DNA of 64,000 nt from Planctomycetota bacterium (GTDB lineage Bacteria; Planctomycetota; B15-G4; SIAN01), in NCBI GenBank assembly GCA_031409275.1, contig JANNXA010000014.1, positions 64,001-128,000 on the forward strand. Reading direction: 5' to 3'. The notes under the pieces were generated by a model. That model made no database searches. It was not told where the DNA came from and saw nothing but the letters and a program-made list of their open reading frames with translations. Positions 51,662 through 60,383 of this stretch are shown here, piece by piece (position 1 is the stretch's first letter; every line of letters starts with the position of its first letter). A program made the position numbers and the translations under genes.

Positions 51662-52915
51662 TCACTCCCGCCAGCGTTGCGCCTCGGGAGTGAACTCGGT
51701 GCGCACCAGACCGCTCGGCGCATCACGCGACGAGATCGTGCCGTCTCCATCGAGGTCGAGACGGCGGAACATCGAGCTGCGACCGGGGTATTCGGCCCGC
51801 GCGATGGAGCCGTTGCCGTCGAGGTCGTAGCGAGTGAAGCAGTCGTCGAAAGCGGCGAGCGGTCCTTCGACGCGAGCGGCAGTGACGGCCGTCTCGAGTT
51901 CGCGCAGATCGAGATCGCCGTCGCCGTTCTCGTCGAACCGGATGCGCGTCGCCGCGAAGCGCGCGAGTTCGATCGTCGATAGGCTCCGGTCGCGATCGCG
52001 ATCGAGGAGCTGCATCGCCGTCTTGGCATCGGCCGCCAGGATCATCGGATAGGGGCCGCCGAATGCCCGCGAGCGCGGCAGCTCGGTCCGGTCGAGCGAA
52101 CCGTCGCCGCTGCGATCGAACAGCTCGATCAGGGGCGTCGGGATCCCGAGCTCCTTGACCGAGACCCCGCCGTTCTTGTCGCGATCGAGCTTGATGAAAA
52201 GCGCTCGCCGGTCCACGGCTAGGGGCAGCAACGACAGCTCGCCAGCGGAAAGGAGGTCGTTGCCGTCAAGGTCGGCGCGCGCATGGGCGAGGCGCGTGAG
52301 CTCGCCCGCATCGAAGCGGCCGTCGCGATCACGATCGAACCGATGCAGGTCACCGCCGCCGACGATCAGCCCCCACTCGAGCGCGGGGTTCGCGGTGCCG
52401 AAACTCGCTTGGGAGCGCGCGACGGGCGCGCGCAGCGCGACGAGGTAGTCGACGATGACGCGCGCTTCCTTGTCGCTGATCGCGGCGTCCTTCTTCTCGC
52501 GCATGCGGCGCACGGTGTCGGCCCAACCCGCCGCGCTCTTCGCCGAGCGCTCGACGCGAGTCTCGTCATGGCAGGCAAGACAACGGCGCTCGAACACTTC
52601 GTTCTTCGTGACCAGAGTTCCGATCGCGACCAGCAGGCGGTCGGGAGCCACCGCTTCGCTCGCCGGTTTGAGCGGCGGCGCTTTCGCGCTGCGGCCGAGC
52701 TCACCGGTCGAAAGCCAGCCATCGAGATCGACGTCCAGCGACACGAACGTCGTCCCCGACCCCTTCCACTCCGACCGGCCGACGAACCCGTTGCCGTCGG
52801 TGTCGAGCGTCTTCAGGAACTGGCGCCCTGCCGCGCTCTCGCCCTGCGCCGCCGCCACCGAGGCGCAGAAAACGATGACGAGCGCGCTGGCCAGCATCGA
52901 CGGCGGCTGCATCAT
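51662..52915 (-). CDS. Exported EF-hand-repeat protein with one c-type heme (CLACH)
   Basis: Signal peptide; many DxDxDG loops (LDTDGNG, FDRDRDG, LDRDKNG, YDLDGNG); CLACH with W..TVRRM possible distal Met. Confidence 0.8.
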   Translation of the reverse strand: MMQPPSMLASALVIVFCASVAAAQGESAAGRQFLKTLDTDGNGFVGRSEWKGSGTTFVSLDVDLDGWLSTGELGRSAKAPPLKPASEAVAPDRLLVAIGTLVTKNEVFERRCLACHDETRVERSAKSAAGWADTVRRMREKKDAAISDKEARVIVDYLVALRAPVARSQASFGTANPALEWGLIVGGGDLHRFDRDRDGRFDAGELTRLAHARADLDGNDLLSAGELSLLPLAVDRRALFIKLDRDKNGGVSVKELGIPTPLIELFDRSGDGSLDRTELPRSRAFGGPYPMILAADAKTAMQLLDRDRDRSLSTIELARFAATRIRFDENGDGDLDLRELETAVTAARVEGPLAAFDDCFTRYDLDGNGSIARAEYPGRSSMFRRLDLDGDGTISSRDAPSGLVRTEFTPEAQRWRE

Positions 52916-55851
52916 CGATCGACTCCCAACAACCCGAAGCCGCGCACATCCTCCGCGCTGAGCGGAACGCGCAGCACGCGCAGCAGCTCCTGCGCATCGA
53001 GGAAGCGGGCGCCTTCGTGCGAGACGTCCTTCAGGCGCCGACCATCGGGGTCGCTCATGCGATCGAGCGGGAACTCCTCGAGCACGAGGTCGCGCACGCG
53101 CAGCCCCTCGCCGAACAACGGGCCGATGATCAGCGGCTTGTCGCTCGACGAGGTGTCGAGCACGGATGCGGCCGAGCGGCCGGCGACGAGCGCGCTGCGG
53201 CGCAGGAACGGCGGGTTGTACCAGGCGGCCATCACCAGCCGGAACGCTCCGTCCGGCATCGGCTCCGCCGCGACGATCTTCGGCGACTCGGGATCGGTGA
53301 TGCGCACGATCGCGACCGCTCCCGGCGTCATCGTCTCCTCGATCGGCTGCACCGCGAAGCAGGCGTAGTCGTGCTCCTGCGTCGGCAGGTCGCCACCAGG
53401 ACTGCCAAGGTCGAATCGCGACAGCACCTGCACGTCGAGCACCCGGTTGGTGCTCTCCGGTCGGGCCGACGTCGCCGGCGACTCGACGCGCACCTCGGGC
53501 GGCGGGAAGAGCCGCTCCGGCTGGGTCGGTTCGGTCACATCGAAGAGGAAGAAGCCTTGCAGACCGCCGGCGACCGCCGCGATCTTGCGCGCCTCGGTGC
53601 GTTGACCGAGTCCATCGTCGGGGCGCGCGTACTGGAAGAGGACCTTCACCGCGTGGACATCATCCGCGCGAGTCGGGTCGAGGTTCGGATCGAGGTGACC
53701 GACGAGATCGACTTTGCCCGCGGTCGCGACATCGAAGATCTTCACGCCGGCGGCGCCGTCCGCGACGTAGAGGTGCGGCCAGCTCAGATCGAGCCCGACC
53801 GCCTCGTGCGTGGGCAGCTGCGACAGCGCTTTCGGCTTGGCCGGCTCGCTGACGTCGAAAAGGCGCACGCCGCCGCGACCATCGGCGACGTAGAGGACGC
53901 TGCCGCGCACCAGCAAGGCGCGCGGATCCGTCGTCTCCAGGAAGGCGACGCGTTCGGGGAAGGCCGCGCGACGTGCGTCGACGATGGCGACGCCCGCGCC
54001 GGCGATGGCGACGAAGAGCGTCTCGAAGCGCCCCTGCAGGTCGTCGCAGCGCGCCGCGATCGCGACCCCGCCCGGCAGCGCCAGCGATGCAAGCGGGGTC
54101 GACGCGTCGAGATTCTCGCGATCGACCGCGACGAGGTGGACGCCGCGCAGATCGAGGATCGCGGCGACCTCGCGCGACAGCCCGAAGCTCGGAGAGCCGA
54201 GCCCGACCGTGGCCGGCGAGCGGTGGCACTCGACGCAGCCGCGCGCCTGCGCGCGCGTGGTGTGCAGCTGATGATGGATCATCGTCATCCCGGAGAGTCC
54301 GGCGGCGGTCACCGGCAGCTCCTGGTCGAGGACGAGCGCGCCGGTCGCATCGTGAACGCTGCCCATCGTCGAGAAGCCGACCAGGAACGGCGCGACCTTC
54401 CCTTCGTCGTTCCAGCCGAAATAGAAGTGCTTGTAGGTCGCGAACACCTTCTCCTGCGTGGAGCAGCGTCCGGGTGTCCGGTCGCCGGTGACCAGATCGA
54501 GCTGCGAGAAGGATTCGTTGCGGTCGAAGTGGAAACCGAAGAAGTTGGCGTTCCACGCGGCGTGGCAGGTGTAGCACTCCAGCCGCTCGTGTTGCGGCGT
54601 CATCGCGCGCGCCGCCTTCGCGTTGTATTCGGGCCGCGATGGATCGATGACGTGAGTCGCCTGCGGGATGAAGTGGCGCTTGCCGTCGACCTTCGAAACC
54701 AGGTACGTGAGCCCCGCCTCGACGTGCAGATGGTCGAGCTTGCGGCCGCGAGAGGTCGTCAACGAGGAGACCTCGTCGAAGGTGCCGTGGCAGTCGGTGC
54801 ACTCGATCTCGACGGCGTGCTCCATGAAGCCCCAGATCTCGCCATCCCCCATCACGTCGCGCACGGTGTGGCAATCGACGCAGTGCATGCCGCGTTCATG
54901 GTGGACATCGGGCGGGACGATCGAGCGGTCGTTCACGTAGAAGACGCCGTTCTGCAGCGCCGCGGTCGTTCCGGGCACTTCCGGTCCCGCCGGCATTCCG
55001 GGCGCGAGCTGCGCCAGGCCGCGAAACTGCAGCCCGATCGAGGCGTCGCCGTAGTGGCAGTGCACGCAGGTCTGCGTCGGCGGCGCCGACACCATCGCGT
55101 GGCGCTCGGGATGACCGGGCTCGAAACGGTCGACGGTCGGATCGGCGCTGCGAGAGATGCCGTCGTCAGCGTAGGTCACGTGGCACGCGGAGCAGCCGGC
55201 TCCGCGGTAGTTGCCGTCCTGGCCGAGGCGGCCGCGCACGGCGGTGCCGCCCCCCCATAGATGGCATTGCATGCAGCTCTTGCGGCCAAGGTCGGTGACG
55301 TGACCCGCCAGCGAATCGCGACGCGTCGGGTCGTCGGCGAGCGGGAACCCGGGCAGCTCGGCGTAGGCCCCGTTGGGGCGACTGCGATCGCGATCGACCA
55401 CCGGGAAGATGCTGTAGCGGGTCCGGCGCTCCTTGCTGAGGCCGTTCTCGTAGAGGCTGTCGGAAAGGTGGCCGGCCGTCGTGCAATGCAGCGACTTCAG
55501 CAGGTTCTCGCAGTCGTTCGTGTGGCAGCTGCCGCAGACGCGGCTGGCCACGCGCAGGTCGCCCGGATTGACGAACTGGATCCAGGCTGGATCGTAGTCG
55601 AGCGGCAGCAGCCGCTCGTCGTTGGGCGGCGTCGCGCGCGGCTTCACGTGCGCTTGGACCTTCGTCGTCGCCTTCGCGTCGCCGCCGTGGCACGCCGTGC
55701 AGGTCAGCGGCTGCCAGGGGTGCATCTCCTCGATGCCGCCGTGACACGCCGAGCAGCCCTCCGCTTCCGGCCCCTTCGGTTGCTGGGCGCGCGCGGCCGG
55801 CAGCAGAGCGAGCAGGAGCGTCGCGCTCCACGCGACGACGCGGGTCGCCAT
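52912..55851 (-). CDS. Decaheme cytochrome c fused to LVIVD-repeat beta-propeller
   Basis: Signal ending ARA-Q; 10 CxxCH (CSACH, CTACH, CGSCH, CMQCH, CSACH, CVHCH, CVDCH, CTDCH, CYTCH, CVECH); LYVADG..GV..FDV repeats. Confidence 0.88.
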   Translation of the reverse strand: MATRVVAWSATLLLALLPAARAQQPKGPEAEGCSACHGGIEEMHPWQPLTCTACHGGDAKATTKVQAHVKPRATPPNDERLLPLDYDPAWIQFVNPGDLRVASRVCGSCHTNDCENLLKSLHCTTAGHLSDSLYENGLSKERRTRYSIFPVVDRDRSRPNGAYAELPGFPLADDPTRRDSLAGHVTDLGRKSCMQCHLWGGGTAVRGRLGQDGNYRGAGCSACHVTYADDGISRSADPTVDRFEPGHPERHAMVSAPPTQTCVHCHYGDASIGLQFRGLAQLAPGMPAGPEVPGTTAALQNGVFYVNDRSIVPPDVHHERGMHCVDCHTVRDVMGDGEIWGFMEHAVEIECTDCHGTFDEVSSLTTSRGRKLDHLHVEAGLTYLVSKVDGKRHFIPQATHVIDPSRPEYNAKAARAMTPQHERLECYTCHAAWNANFFGFHFDRNESFSQLDLVTGDRTPGRCSTQEKVFATYKHFYFGWNDEGKVAPFLVGFSTMGSVHDATGALVLDQELPVTAAGLSGMTMIHHQLHTTRAQARGCVECHRSPATVGLGSPSFGLSREVAAILDLRGVHLVAVDRENLDASTPLASLALPGGVAIAARCDDLQGRFETLFVAIAGAGVAIVDARRAAFPERVAFLETTDPRALLVRGSVLYVADGRGGVRLFDVSEPAKPKALSQLPTHEAVGLDLSWPHLYVADGAAGVKIFDVATAGKVDLVGHLDPNLDPTRADDVHAVKVLFQYARPDDGLGQRTEARKIAAVAGGLQGFFLFDVTEPTQPERLFPPPEVRVESPATSARPESTNRVLDVQVLSRFDLGSPGGDLPTQEHDYACFAVQPIEETMTPGAVAIVRITDPESPKIVAAEPMPDGAFRLVMAAWYNPPFLRRSALVAGRSAASVLDTSSSDKPLIIGPLFGEGLRVRDLVLEEFPLDRMSDPDGRRLKDVSHEGARFLDAQELLRVLRVPLSAEDVRGFGLLGVDR

Positions 55852-55859
55852 CGCGCGGC

Positions 55860-57020
55860 TCAGGAAAAGAGCCGCGGCAGCAGTCGCCCGCGAGCGAGCG
55901 GCGACTCGACGCCGAGCAGCTTGCAGACGGTCGGACAGACGTCGATGGTGCTGCAATCGGTCGCGATCGTCTTGCCCGCCTTGAAGTCGGGGCCCCACGC
56001 GACGCATGCCACCTTGTTCAGCTCGTCGGACGCATCGCCGTGGTCAAGGCCGTTGCGCTGGTTCAGGTTCTTGTCGCGGCCGAACTCCGGCAGGACGAGG
56101 ATCGACGTCGAATCGCGCAGCTGCGCGTCACCGAGTACGGTGTCGAGGATGCGGCCGAGCTCCTGATCGTTGCGCTTGATCACATCGACGTACGCGTTGA
56201 AGGAGCCGTGCGCGACGTCCGCATTCGTGAGCGAGACGCACGACAGCACCGGTCGGAAGATCTGCAGGATGTTGCCCGCGATGCGCAGCGCCTTGGCGTC
56301 ACCGGAACCTGGTCCGGTGAGGCTCACGGTCTCGCTCTGCGTGATCTCGTCGACGATGTACTTCTCGACGCGCGCGGCCGTGACCTCGTCGTTCAGCGCG
56401 GGACCGGTGACCCCGTCGCCGATCGCGCCACGCAAGCGATTCAACGCCGCGTACGCCTTCGGATCATCGGCGCGCGGCGTCCCGAACTGGCCGAGCACCT
56501 CGCGGAACTCCTGGTTGAAGATGCCCTCGCCGTCGATCACGTTCGCGCCGAAGGGAGCGCCCCAGCCGCGATTCAATCCGTACGCGAAGTTGACCCCCTG
56601 TGACCCGTTGTTGGCCGACAGCCAGGCGCCGCTCGCCGGGAGCTTCAGCTCCTTGCGGACGTACTCGAAGATGGTCGGGTTGAAGCCGCGCGAGTTCTCG
56701 CGAATGCCCATGTACTCGGGCACTCCGGTGAGGATCGACAGCGACGCGCCATAGTGGCCTAGATTCGCGGCCGCGCAGTTCGGGAAGACGACGCCCTGCG
56801 CCGCGAGCCGCATCAAGTTCGGCACGTTCGCTGGCGTGCCGATCGTGTCCTTGCTGCGAACGCCGCCGGCGAAGAGGACGAGCACGACCCGCTTCGTCTT
56901 CAGCGCGCCCACCGGCGGCGCCGCGAAGAGGGGGTTGCTGAGGGCGAGCGCGCTGGCCGCGACGGCACCCGCCTGCAGGAACCCGCGGCGCGTCACGGAC
57001 GGCAACGATGGCGTGTCCAC
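55860..57020 (-). CDS. Tat-exported DUF1501/alkaline-phosphatase-superfamily protein
   Basis: Twin-arginine TRRGFLQ; VLVLFAGG; DVAH; LVLPEFGRD..GLDHG. Confidence 0.75.
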   Translation of the reverse strand: MDTPSLPSVTRRGFLQAGAVAASALALSNPLFAAPPVGALKTKRVVLVLFAGGVRSKDTIGTPANVPNLMRLAAQGVVFPNCAAANLGHYGASLSILTGVPEYMGIRENSRGFNPTIFEYVRKELKLPASGAWLSANNGSQGVNFAYGLNRGWGAPFGANVIDGEGIFNQEFREVLGQFGTPRADDPKAYAALNRLRGAIGDGVTGPALNDEVTAARVEKYIVDEITQSETVSLTGPGSGDAKALRIAGNILQIFRPVLSCVSLTNADVAHGSFNAYVDVIKRNDQELGRILDTVLGDAQLRDSTSILVLPEFGRDKNLNQRNGLDHGDASDELNKVACVAWGPDFKAGKTIATDCSTIDVCPTVCKLLGVESPLARGRLLPRLFS

Positions 57021-57030
57021 GGTCAGCTCC

Positions 57031-58152
57031 TCAGTAGGACTGGTACTCGGAATGGGTCAACAACGCGCGCAACACGAGCCTCGCGTCCGCGCCACCCTCG
57101 ATCTCGCGCACGAAGGCGGAACTCTCCGCCGCCGTCGGCGGTCGGGCAAGGAAGTGCAGGAATCGATCGGCCACCTGCTCGGCAGGCGTCGCACCGTTAC
57201 CCAGCGCCCCATCCGCGACGCCGGAGTCGAGCATCATCTTGATCAAGACCGAGCGAAGCGGACGCGAGTCAGAAAGCGCCAGGAGCGCGTTGCGGCAGCG
57301 GCGGAACTCCTGGTAGTCCGGCACGCGGCCGAGCAGATCGGCGTAGAGCGACCGCACGAAGACGCGATCGCTCTTCGGGCGCGGCTGCGCAACGCGCTGC
57401 TCGTACGCGAGCGAGCCGAGCCAGCCAGCGACGAGGTCGGGCCATGACAATGGCTCGTTGCGCAGCCGCTCGGAGTCGGCGGCCAGCCGCTTCTTCGGCG
57501 GCGCGTCGCCGAAGATCGCCGTGAAGCGACGCTCGACGAAGCAGGGCTCACTCTGTGGATGCTCCGCGGCGATGCGCACGAAGTCCGCCTGGCTCGACCC
57601 GCTCTTCCCAAGCACATTCGCCGGGTAGCCGTCGTACATCCGCTTGGCTGCTTCCAGCAGCGCCGGCTCCTTCTGAACGGTGATTCCGAGCAATTGCTCA
57701 AGCACCACGGTCGCGAACGTGTCGTTTCCAGGGTTGCGTGCGTTGAAGAACTGGCTCGAAACGATCTGGCGGAGCATCTCGCGGATGGAGAGCTTGCGTC
57801 CAGCGAGCAACTGCGGGATCGCCGCGAACGCATCGGTCGACGGCCGGAAGTTGTCGATCAACAAAAAGTAGAAGAGCTCTTCTTCGTAGCAGCACTCCGC
57901 TGCGACGAAGCTGGACGAGAACTCACGGATCCACTCGCCGCGCGGCTTGCCTTGAGCGGCCTGCCACTCGGACGGCAGTGGCGTACGGCCAGCGAGGTCG
58001 ACGGTCGCGGCGCGGATGAAGCGACGGTCGAGCGGTGCCAGCGTCAACGACCGCTGCAACTCGGCGCCCGGAGCCTCGAGCGCCGCGGCGGCGATGACAT
58101 CTCGCGGGCCTGGCGCGAAGCGCCGAATCGAGAGGCTGACTGGATCGATCAT
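57031..58152 (-). CDS. DUF1549/DUF1553-like planctomycete protein
   Basis: DRRFIRAATVDLAGRTP and DRVFVRSLYADLLGRVP repeats; C-terminal FLARPPTAAE...ALLTHSEY. Confidence 0.7.
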   Translation of the reverse strand: MIDPVSLSIRRFAPGPRDVIAAAALEAPGAELQRSLTLAPLDRRFIRAATVDLAGRTPLPSEWQAAQGKPRGEWIREFSSSFVAAECCYEEELFYFLLIDNFRPSTDAFAAIPQLLAGRKLSIREMLRQIVSSQFFNARNPGNDTFATVVLEQLLGITVQKEPALLEAAKRMYDGYPANVLGKSGSSQADFVRIAAEHPQSEPCFVERRFTAIFGDAPPKKRLAADSERLRNEPLSWPDLVAGWLGSLAYEQRVAQPRPKSDRVFVRSLYADLLGRVPDYQEFRRCRNALLALSDSRPLRSVLIKMMLDSGVADGALGNGATPAEQVADRFLHFLARPPTAAESSAFVREIEGGADARLVLRALLTHSEYQSY

Positions 58153-58290: not shown

Positions 58291-58328
58291 AAAAAAGGAG
58301 GCCCGAGCTCGCAAGCCCGGGCCTCCTT
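58291..58328 (-). terminator. Rho-independent terminator after the 58367-59113 gene
   Basis: AAGGAGGCCCG/CGGGCCTCCTT stem ending in a T6 run on minus strand. Confidence 0.85.
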
Positions 58329-58366: not shown

Positions 58367-59113
58367 TTACGCCTTGGTCACCTTCCGCTCATCAGCCCAC
58401 TTCTTCTTCAGGGCCGCTTCACGCGTCTCGACCGCCTTCATCTGGTCGTTCAGCGCCTTCTCTTCCTTGGCCCATTCCGATTCCTTCGCAACCGTGGACT
58501 TGGCCTTCTTGGTCGCGAGGGCGGAACGCTTCGCCTCGATCTGGTCGATCTCGGTGAGGATGGTCTTGGTCTCCTTCACCACCGTCTCGAGGTCGTTCTT
58601 GTACGTCTTCGCAGCCGCGCGCTTCATCAGCGTGAAGAGCTTCGACGGCGAGATGTCCTGTCCCTCGACCGAGCCGATCTTCGCGCCCGTCGTGTCGACC
58701 ACGACCATGCGCGGCAGCTCCTTGCCGCCGAGGATCTTCCAGTACGGATGGCTGTCGGTGATCTTGTTGCCGTTCAGCTTGATCTGCTGAAACATCGTCG
58801 AGCCGATCTGGACGTTCTCGTCCATCAGCGTCGTCGCTTCGACGTTCTTCATGAACTGCGCGTGGTCCTCGAGCGCGCTGGTCAGGAAGACGATCGCCGG
58901 CTTGCCGGAGTTCTTGTAGCTGTCCGGGAGCGAGGAGTAGAGGCTCTCGGGGTTGAATCCTTCGTAGGAGTTGAACTTGGGCTCATCCCACTTCAACTCG
59001 ATGCGCGCCATACTGGCGCCGCAGCGTCCGCCGCCTCAGCCACCCTTCAGATCGGGCGTCAGGGCGAGGGCGGCCACCACCGCCATCACACCCGCAAGCG
59101 CAAACCTCTTCAT
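58367..59113 (-). CDS. Candidate selenoprotein A (248 aa): signal peptide, U26-x4-C, thioredoxin-like fold, Lys-rich coiled tail
   Basis: AAGGAGAGG SD, ATG 59113, MKRFALAGVMAVVAALALTPDLKGG-TGA(59036-59038)-GGGRCGAS in frame with ORF 58367-59011. Confidence 0.75.
59002..59023 (-). promoter_or_regulatory. bSECIS-like hairpin of candidate selenoprotein A
   Basis: 12 nt after UGA: UGCG(G)CGCCA-GUA-UGGCGCGCA, 9-bp stem with one bulge and G-led loop. Confidence 0.6.
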
Positions 59114-59361
59114 CGATCCTCTCCTTCGTTGGCCACAGCTGAGCGGAGGGGGCATCCGTCCGCGGCTGAGCGATGTCGCTTCGATCGTTGATTACGCCAT
59201 CCCGGCTGAAGCGGCGCAAGGTCCTGTGACCGTCTGCTCCGCGGCGACCGGTGCTCGTCCGCCGAGAATCACCGGCACGCCTGTCCATGCCTTCCATCGT
59301 AAAAGACGATCAAAGAAATTTGTATCTCCATGATGTCTCCAACGAGTCGTCGTTCTCGAAT

Positions 59362-60168
59362 TCAGCCCTTCGCAACCTTGCGGTCGTCGCTGAACTTCTT
59401 CAAGAGCTCGGAATCGCGCGTCTGCACGTCCTGCAAGGCCTTGGCGAGAGCGGCCTCCTCGACACCGATCTCCTGCAGCTTCGCGCCCTTCGCAGTCTTC
59501 TTCTGCTCGACCAGGAGCTTCTGCTTCGCCTCGATCTGGTCCATCTCGTCGAGCAGCGAGCGCGTGTCCTTGACGACCTTGTCGAGGTCGGCTTTGTACG
59601 TCTTGCTTGCAGCCTTCTTCATCGACTTGAAAAGATTCGACGCCGAAAGCTCATTGCCTTCAAGGACGCCCGCCTTCTTGCCGGACGCGTCGATCACGAC
59701 CACGCGCGGCAGCGACTTGCCGCCGAGCGTCGGCCAATGCGGGTGGTCCTTCGAGACCTTGTCGCCCTTCATGCGGACCGCGCGGAAGAGGCGAGCGCCC
59801 ACTGCGACGTTCTCGTCGCCGAAGACAGCCGTTTCGAGCTCGGACATCTTCTTCGCGGCATCGGGCAGATCGGTGCCGAGGAAGAGGACGAGCGGCTTGC
59901 CGACTTCGGTGTACTCGGCCGGGAGGCACGAGAAGAAGTTGGTGGCGTCAACGTGGTCGTAGAGGTTGATCTTCGGCGTCTCCCACTTCATCTGGAGACG
60001 CGCAACGCTCGACGTGCCTTGGCGGGAAATACCGCCGCCGCTACGCATTCCACCACCGGATCGGGCGGCTCCGCCGCCCCCACCGCCGCATCAGCCGCCG
60101 CGAAGGTCGGGAGAGAGTGCGAGAGCGGCCGCGACCGCAATCGCTCCACCGAAAAGCCGGATCCGCAT
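59362..60168 (-). CDS. Candidate selenoprotein B (268 aa): signal peptide, U26-C27, Gly linker, thioredoxin-like fold; paralog of A
   Basis: AGGGAG SD, ATG 60168, MRIRLFGGAIAVAAALALSPDLRGG-TGA(60091-60093)-CGGGGGG in frame with ORF 59362-60048. Confidence 0.75.
60063..60079 (-). promoter_or_regulatory. bSECIS-like hairpin of candidate selenoprotein B
   Basis: 11 nt after UGA: GGGCGGC-GGA-GCCGCCC, perfect 7-bp stem with G-led loop. Confidence 0.6.
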
Positions 60169-60383
60169 GTAACGCTCCCTAAGTCGACTCGGCGCCGCTG
60201 GCGGATCGACATGCTTTCGCCGGGCATCCGGCGCAGCGTCCGATCGACGGCGCAATCGGTCTTTTCATAGCAATGGCACGACGAAAAGTGACGGAGGCGT
60301 GTCAAAGCCGCGTTAGTGCGCATTCAGATCCATCGGTGAGGCTCACGCACCGCAATCGGGTCGTCCGATCCGCGCGCGACCAT

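Follow-up and report, generated by a model that had tools for sequence, protein, structure and literature searches.

Two tandem genes, here called paralogs A and B, in the 64,000-nucleotide stretch of planctomycete DNA that we analysed (the window) carry an in-frame TGA at codon 26 that, on the sequence evidence, is very likely read as selenocysteine (Sec). They add a large selenoprotein family that is held in databases as shortened hypothetical proteins. The family is uncatalogued: its Sec placement is absent from the selenoprotein catalogue, and its recoding mechanism and fold are of kinds already known. Our best overall explanation, to which we assign a probability of about one half, is that Sec is inserted via a downstream hairpin and would form an external N-terminal redox arm on a predicted exported thioredoxin-fold protein.

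The coordinates given for both genes in the original prediction, each with an upstream ATG and Shine-Dalgarno-like sequence, a 25-codon leader and an in-frame TGA at codon 26, were confirmed (Table 1). The open reading frame list made under translation table 11 does shorten both genes as had been noticed, placing their starts at 59011 (A) and 60048 (B), downstream of TGA26. The Cys described near each TGA is Cys31 in A (U-GGGR-C, in the arm sequence G-U-G-G-G-R-C) and Cys27 in B (U-C, in G-U-C). A and B are 44-45% identical, no further close copy of either was found in the genome by tblastn, and no sigma-70 promoter match was found at the locus. Codon differences between the leader of A and those of three orthologues (8-9 synonymous and 5-8 non-synonymous) show the pattern expected of a coding leader. 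A contig from an independent RNA library (run X2, record 6) is identical to positions 58996-59206 and spans the TGA of A. Five sequencing runs had shares of 0.05-0.09, and the four that were compared, all as contigs, show neither transcription nor a shared transcript. Homologues of many families, 102 distinct genes in all, have TGA at the same place; together with the RNA-library contig, this indicates that TGA26 is neither a chance event nor an assembly error.

Table 1. Features of the A and B locus, in positions of the window
Feature	Position	Strand	Details	Basis
Paralog A gene	58367..59113	-	ATG 59113; TGA26 read as Sec; 248 aa; stop TAA 58369-58367	Orthologues in related genomes
Paralog B gene	59362..60168	-	ATG 60168; TGA26 read as Sec; 268 aa; normal TGA stop 59364-59362	Orthologues in G001, G002, G003
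Shine-Dalgarno-like AAGGAG	59121..59126	-	Upstream of the ATG of A	Sequence
Shine-Dalgarno-like AGGGAG	60175..60180	-	Upstream of the ATG of B	Sequence
Predicted signal peptide of A	59042..59113	-	Codons 1-24; predicted cleavage before Gly25	Family pattern, inference
Predicted signal peptide of B	60097..60168	-	Codons 1-24; predicted cleavage before Gly25	Family pattern (small residue at -2, Ala at -4 from TGA), inference
TGA26 of A, inferred Sec	59036..59038	-	Predicted mature position +2	Conserved across homologues
Cys31 of A	59021..59023	-	5 residues past Sec	Sequence
TGA26 and TGC27 of B	60088..60093	-	Inferred Sec (60093-60091) and Cys; adjacent U-C pair	Sequence
SECIS-type hairpin of A	59005..59019	-	6-bp stem, GUA loop 22 nt past UGA, -8.7 kcal/mol; includes ATG 59011	Hairpin test
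SECIS-type hairpin of B	60063..60079	-	7-bp stem, GGA loop 18 nt past UGA, -13.7 kcal/mol	Hairpin test
Predicted thioredoxin-fold domain of A	58598..59002	-	Approximately residues 38-172; S-A-L-E in the columns that hold CxxC in one clade; cis-Pro position retained (Pro134)	Model and alignment
Two long C-terminal helices predicted in A	58391..58591	-	Residues 175-205 and 211-241	Model
Intrinsic-terminator-like hairpin followed by T run	58299..58318	-	3' of A	Consensus match only

Matches to A were found in 32 of 61 related genomes, and a 42-member profile matched at least 104 of the 401 genomes in a search that covered Planctomycetota, a floor set by a stricter filter. The family amounts to 765 clusters at 50% identity with E-values up to 0.001, tandem paralogs are frequent in it, and the stops inside family matches are all TGA among the matches listed, a list that leaves out 25 matches. 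We examined 128 distinct domain matches, namely the returned loci and 73 chosen regions that deliberately included matches without a stop. A script assigned a leader and TGA to 106 of them, leaving 102 distinct genes after removal of duplicates (the rows L022_0, L025, L032 and L054, labelled 'none' in the quick tree, are Sec genes dropped by this de-duplication). The other 22 comprise a Sec-Sec gene, L093, that escaped the filter, six fetched loci with Cys at the aligned site, one gene with TGG (L097), one cut by a contig end, nine with a leader and no Cys/Sec arm, and four whose N-termini were uninspected. The check on homologues suggested with the original prediction thus showed that they keep TGA or have Cys at codon 26, the exceptions being the single TGG and at least nine remote homologues, which have the leader and lack a Cys or Sec arm and from which it follows that the domain can exist without the arm. 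In L097 (G126:C21), TGG (Trp) replaces the Sec codon beside a Cys, and the same genome has Sec and Cys paralogs. A database protein, P0131, has W at the site, probably from a gene call made under another code. A hydrophobic stretch is present at the N-terminus of 47 of 150 cluster representatives, and 32 of these 47 have, by eye, a Cys within a few residues of its end.

The Sec machinery, a search for which had been proposed, is complete in the host genome: selA (484 bits), selB (334), tRNA-Sec (selC, 76) and selD (338.5) all score above curated cut-offs, and the host selD carries an in-frame TGA of its own. Among the Planctomycetota genomes, selA is present in 101 of the 104 with the family versus 189 of the 297 others (related genomes not being independent), and the three family genomes without selA carry selB, so that all 104 have selA or selB. 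TGA is an ordinary stop in the host, including at the end of B. The Sec-type family genes end in TGA (63), TAG (26) or TAA (12), and their Sec site is always TGA. An alternative genetic code was ruled out, as TGA ends many genes and the only fitting tRNAs are Sec(tca) and Trp(cca).

TGA is a normal stop in the host, yet Sec recoding is widely used there, since a codon-usage scan, inspected by eye, pointed to about 20 other likely redox selenoproteins, whose motifs are U-x-x-C, T-x-x-U, C-x-x-U or of MsrA type, amid many ordinary TGA gene ends. They include four TlpA-like proteins with W-U-G-P-C (two on C7, one each on C9 and C47), two Prx-like proteins with T-P-G-U (C34, C45), MsrA (C37), an AhpD-like protein (C51), glutaredoxin-like proteins (C33, C51) and several Trx7-like proteins. 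FG-GAP-repeat-like proteins with an in-frame TGA were seen at C14:295797 (-), C34:64177 (-), C3:2400 (-) and C30:17689 (+); in the first two a strong hairpin follows at 18 nt, and the last two read U-C. A small leader-bearing protein at C18:86342 (+) has Q-C-S-M-U (C-x-x-U) at its predicted mature N-terminus and a hairpin at 19 nt, and a leader-bearing frame at C50:93369 (-) has an in-frame TGA about 20 residues past the leader, a hairpin at 24 nt and then 650 open codons.

Behind the UGA, where the original prediction expected a hairpin, SECIS-type hairpins are present in A, in B and in 76 of the 102 family genes, and those of A and B both satisfy the bacterial SECIS consensus (PMC13188914, section 5). 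The family was scored with our own script, not bSECISearch, which asks for a G[G/U] loop starting 14-30 nt past the UGA and applies a laxer cut-off of -5; 26 of the 102 genes fail the strict test. Synonymous recoding of the same genes gave a mean of 21.2 hairpins and a maximum of 32 in 200 runs. The other controls gave 9 of 63 for true TGA stops of the same genes, 3-10 of 102 for windows shifted downstream and 208 of 3000 for random genomic TGAs, and the hairpin occurs in one of the six Cys homologues. An initial version of the test without the loop motif found 80 of 102, versus 46.6 after recoding and 26.7 after shuffling. Whole-region folding z-scores are weak (-2.33 and -0.20 for A, 0.09 and 0.53 for B) because the DNA is GC-rich, and the position- and loop-specific test was used instead. 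The stems vary in sequence with their pairing kept, and an orthologue of B (L021) shows a double compensatory change in the stem. The Ser codon in the loop is AGT in 38 of 41 genes, whereas in the domain bodies the share of AGT is 3.8%. L045 has the same loop, there out of frame. The hairpin is under RNA-level selection.

These data also bear on the reading of TGA26 as a true stop, giving a 25-aa peptide plus a cytoplasmic protein made by re-initiation, or as Trp or Cys in a selenium-free read-through product, which we consider very improbable. Of the 53 genes whose AGT is in frame, 27 have a possible start codon (ATG, GTG, TTG or CTG) after the loop codon, but this NTG is explained by the 3' arm of the hairpin. 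Only 46 of the 102 genes contain an ATG at all in the stretch from the UGA to the conserved Trp, and only four have one preceded by a Shine-Dalgarno-like sequence, so re-initiation does not explain the family. One homologue with TGG and one database protein with W at the site would suit a Trp reading; against it, the site is always TGA in Sec-type genes despite the mixture of codons at their ends, TGA is an ordinary stop in the genome, and Cys homologues and a full selABCD set are present. The original proposal that TGA26 encodes Sec is therefore upheld at the level of sequence by the complete machinery, the TGA and Cys homologues, the conserved leader and the selected hairpin. Gene callers restart inside the SECIS hairpin, which is why the family was missed in annotation; NCBI holds the shortened form as a hypothetical protein without signal peptide or Sec (e.g. 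MSR47056.1, 214 aa).

The conserved leader that had been proposed was found in 102 distinct genes as a signal-peptide-like sequence preceding the TGA. By pattern inspection, a charged N-region, a hydrophobic core and A-x-A/G are seen across the family, and A and B have L-x-G instead. The position two residues before the TGA is mostly small, and that four residues before it is Ala in 55 of 102 genes. This pattern fits cleavage by signal peptidase I leaving Sec at mature position +2 (or +3 after a Cys), and the proteins are very probably exported. We considered and rejected two other leader types. The lipobox consensus is [LVI][ASTVI][GAS]C directly after the hydrophobic stretch. A lipoprotein processed by signal peptidase II is not supported: the residues seen most at -3 are A, E, G, D, H, S and K, 24 of the 102 genes have Gln at -1, and the site comes after a polar spacer. 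Nor is a double-glycine leader, as the L-x-G-G end is typical of the closest family alone and most members have A-x-A/G before G or Q.

In the 102 genes, the TGA is preceded by Gly (61), Gln (24) or Cys (15), and it is followed by Cys in 44 genes, by Gly in 39 and by another TGA in 14. A second Cys or Sec lies within positions -2 to +8 in 95 of the genes, and the other seven have a single Sec in the arm, six of these also lacking CxxC. The 14 Sec-Sec (TGA-TGA) members offer a natural test of whether SelB can decode two UGA codons in a row and of how an adjacent diselenide behaves.

The structural model of A has a mean pLDDT of 88, and residues 18-27 fall below 50, so that the model is silent on contacts of the arm. 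Compared with solved structures, residues 39-172 best match the C-terminal (gamma) domain of DsbD (2fwe; Foldseek E 4.6e-5, Z 11.0, rmsd 2.8, 113 aligned residues), and an Atlas lead agrees with a thioredoxin fold. No significant sequence match was found in PDB (best E 0.0029). The body is predicted to consist of a thioredoxin fold followed by a helical hairpin. A proline is kept at the thioredoxin cis-Pro position in at least 90% of members. The columns of the CxxC motif read S-A-L-E in A and T-D-L-P in B, so CxxC is absent from both, and Sec lies about 12 (A) or 32 (B) residues ahead of the thioredoxin domain. A CxxC after the first core strand is present in 21 of the 102 Sec genes, which all fall within one clade of the quick tree (support 95), and absent from 81. 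The linker between Sec and the domain core has a median of 101 residues in this CxxC clade versus 56 otherwise, a difference that rests on one clade. A single-sequence fold of a CxxC member reached a pLDDT of 39 and was unusable.

That the arm serves redox chemistry, and not another use, appears slightly more probable than not. In the mechanism that we propose, the hairpin behind TGA26 would direct Sec insertion, and predicted signal-peptide cleavage between Gly24 and Gly25 would expose a Sec and Cys redox pair at the N-terminal tip. The arm may then cycle between a selenolate/thiol and an Se-S ring. In the absence of CxxC, the domain of A and B cannot recharge the arm, and an extracytoplasmic donor would do so. 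The candidate is a DsbD-type protein of the same genome, where a DsbD membrane domain is followed closely by a thioredoxin motif with U-x-x-C (C51:106506 and 106936-107550, minus strand); this gene likely encodes a Sec-containing DsbD. The CxxC-less domain and the helical hairpin could serve as a docking scaffold for client proteins, and in the CxxC clade the long linker might let the arm exchange electrons with the CxxC site. The paired Sec and Cys on a flexible terminus, the cis-Pro scaffold, the long-linker CxxC clade and the DsbD-type candidate donor fit a redox arm; the CxxC-less domain of A and B, the 7 of 102 single-chalcogen arms and the homologues without an arm speak against it.

The main rival, which we regard as rather unlikely, has the arm as a soft-metal or metalloid site (Cu, Hg, As or Ni) in which the free N-terminal amine and the Sec/Cys pair act together in an extracytoplasmic scavenger or metallochaperone. 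The G-U-G-G-R-C spacing of several members is reminiscent of the nickel hook of NiSOD, and the strict +2/+3 position of Sec would suit use of the terminal amine. U-C, C-U, U-U and C-C are interchangeable in the family, and CU/CC pairs have been proposed as metal ligands in SaoB, SaoC, SaoL and HgcAB (accessible parts of bioRxiv 10.1101/2022.07.06.499078; PMC13188914, section 7). However, the predicted scaffold is of the thioredoxin type and retains the cis-Pro position, and the short flanks compared show no recurrent gene for metal transport or resistance next to the family.

The third way to use a Sec-bearing arm, as a covalent tether that joins the protein stably, through Se-S, S-S or Se-Se, to a partner or to a second copy of itself in the cell envelope, with the rest of the protein structural or chaperone-like, seems improbable. 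It would account for the absence of CxxC from 81 of 102 genes, for the existence of single-Sec and single-Cys arms, for a long helical hairpin suited to binding and for the frequent tandem paralogs, and planctomycete envelopes may be disulfide-rich. Sec mostly marks catalytic sites, though, and Sec with a dedicated hairpin would be unusual for a static link; the second chalcogen in 95 of 102 genes favours an internal pair.

A third, remote member of the family is encoded in the same genome (C55:150697-151443, plus strand; L065/L156). It has a leader, a Gly-Sec-Gly-Pro-Gly-Cys arm and a SECIS-type hairpin, and a thioredoxin-like body without the long helical hairpin. It gave 12 scored matches in 11 of the 61 genomes, and 10 of the 12 have leader and TGA. 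Against the family HMM the protein alone scores 1.9 bits, no match, and comparison of its profile with the main-family profile aligns 85 columns at a probability of 95% (E 2e-8). Returning to the redox-arm explanation, we tentatively suggest, with somewhat more doubt than belief, a portable N-terminal selenium arm, unmasked by cleavage, that may have taken the place of the thioredoxin active site in most members of a family found across the phylum and that also sits on a remote subfamily without the long hairpin, carrying Sec-Cys, Cys-Sec or TGA-TGA-encoded Sec-Sec ahead of one hairpin. If true, this arm would correspond, outside the cytoplasm, to the thioredoxin-reductase tail, and bacteria would have a natural protein in which two selenocysteines stand side by side.

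At the 116 loci compared (flanks of about 1.5-4 kb), the neighbouring genes show only synteny at the level of the family and offer no hint of the mechanism. An exported protein with a C-G-C motif, which may resemble DUF1573 proteins, recurs beside the family gene at L038, L039, L040 and L055, all from one family. Downstream of A on the same strand (52912-58152, minus), the window encodes a 373-aa protein with weak DUF1549/DUF4214 matches that is syntenic in the closest family, a sulfatase-like protein with a TAT leader, and a 1031-aa multiheme cytochrome with LVIVD repeats. A further selenoprotein is possible at L116:1062 (+), where C-G-D-G-C-U and a hairpin come after a leader of lipoprotein type, upstream of a family gene.

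In the 42 members scanned, no curated NCBIfam or Pfam family scored above its cut-off. With the NCBIfam models, the best match was unrelated and confined to one member (E 0.0007), with no selenoprotein model at E 0.1, and Pfam gave only coiled-coil-type noise for the same 42 members. The view that the architecture lies outside described bacterial selenoprotein families agrees with the 119-family catalogue (PMC13188914, sections 5 and 7), which has no entry of this kind by name or motif. No description of the family was found by title or abstract in a full-text literature search whose scope left subscription papers mostly outside. According to the accessible parts of PMC13326102, Planctomycetota genomes were among those analysed there, and its database could contain related entries.

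The known thioredoxin-fold selenoproteins of bacteria (Trx, TlpA/Prx-like and the thiol:disulfide interchange proteins of PF13098; PMC13188914, Table 1) are like A and B in their UGA with a SECIS-type hairpin, in Sec/Cys interchange and in fold, but their Sec lies in an active-site UxxC, CxxU or TxxU, whereas that of A and B is outside the domain, behind a signal peptide and without CxxC. The UGC-containing TlpA family and the DUF1573 UGC family are set apart by motif only: the family does not have U-G-C, a Cys two residues past U occurring in at most one of 102 genes. As far as the accessible parts of bioRxiv 10.1101/2022.07.06.499078 go, the selenoproteins SaoC, SaoB and HgcA were likewise hidden by shortened gene calls and have adjacent CU/CC pairs, features shared by the present family; SaoB and SaoC have signal peptides, the CU of HgcA is in an N-terminal extension and the pair of SaoC is C-terminal. 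We found no match to the Sao/Hgc NCBIfam models and no Sao operon near these genes. The group of DsbD gamma, DsbH, AGR2 and ERp19 (2fwe, 2ju5, 9i3f, 1sen) resembles the predicted fold of A residues 39-172 (Z 10-11, rmsd about 3, 16-18% identity), whereas A and B have no CxxC and no membrane-domain fusion, and have an extra N-terminal Sec arm and a C-terminal helical hairpin. Animal thioredoxin reductase has a Gly-Cys-Sec-Gly tail, likewise a flexible, Gly-flanked terminal Sec/Cys pair, and G-C-U-G occurs literally in some family members (e.g. L084, L124). Unlike that tail, the family arm is N-terminal, would be exposed only after the predicted cleavage, varies in order and spacing (U-C, C-U, U-U, U-x4-C), and belongs to a predicted exported protein without an FAD domain.
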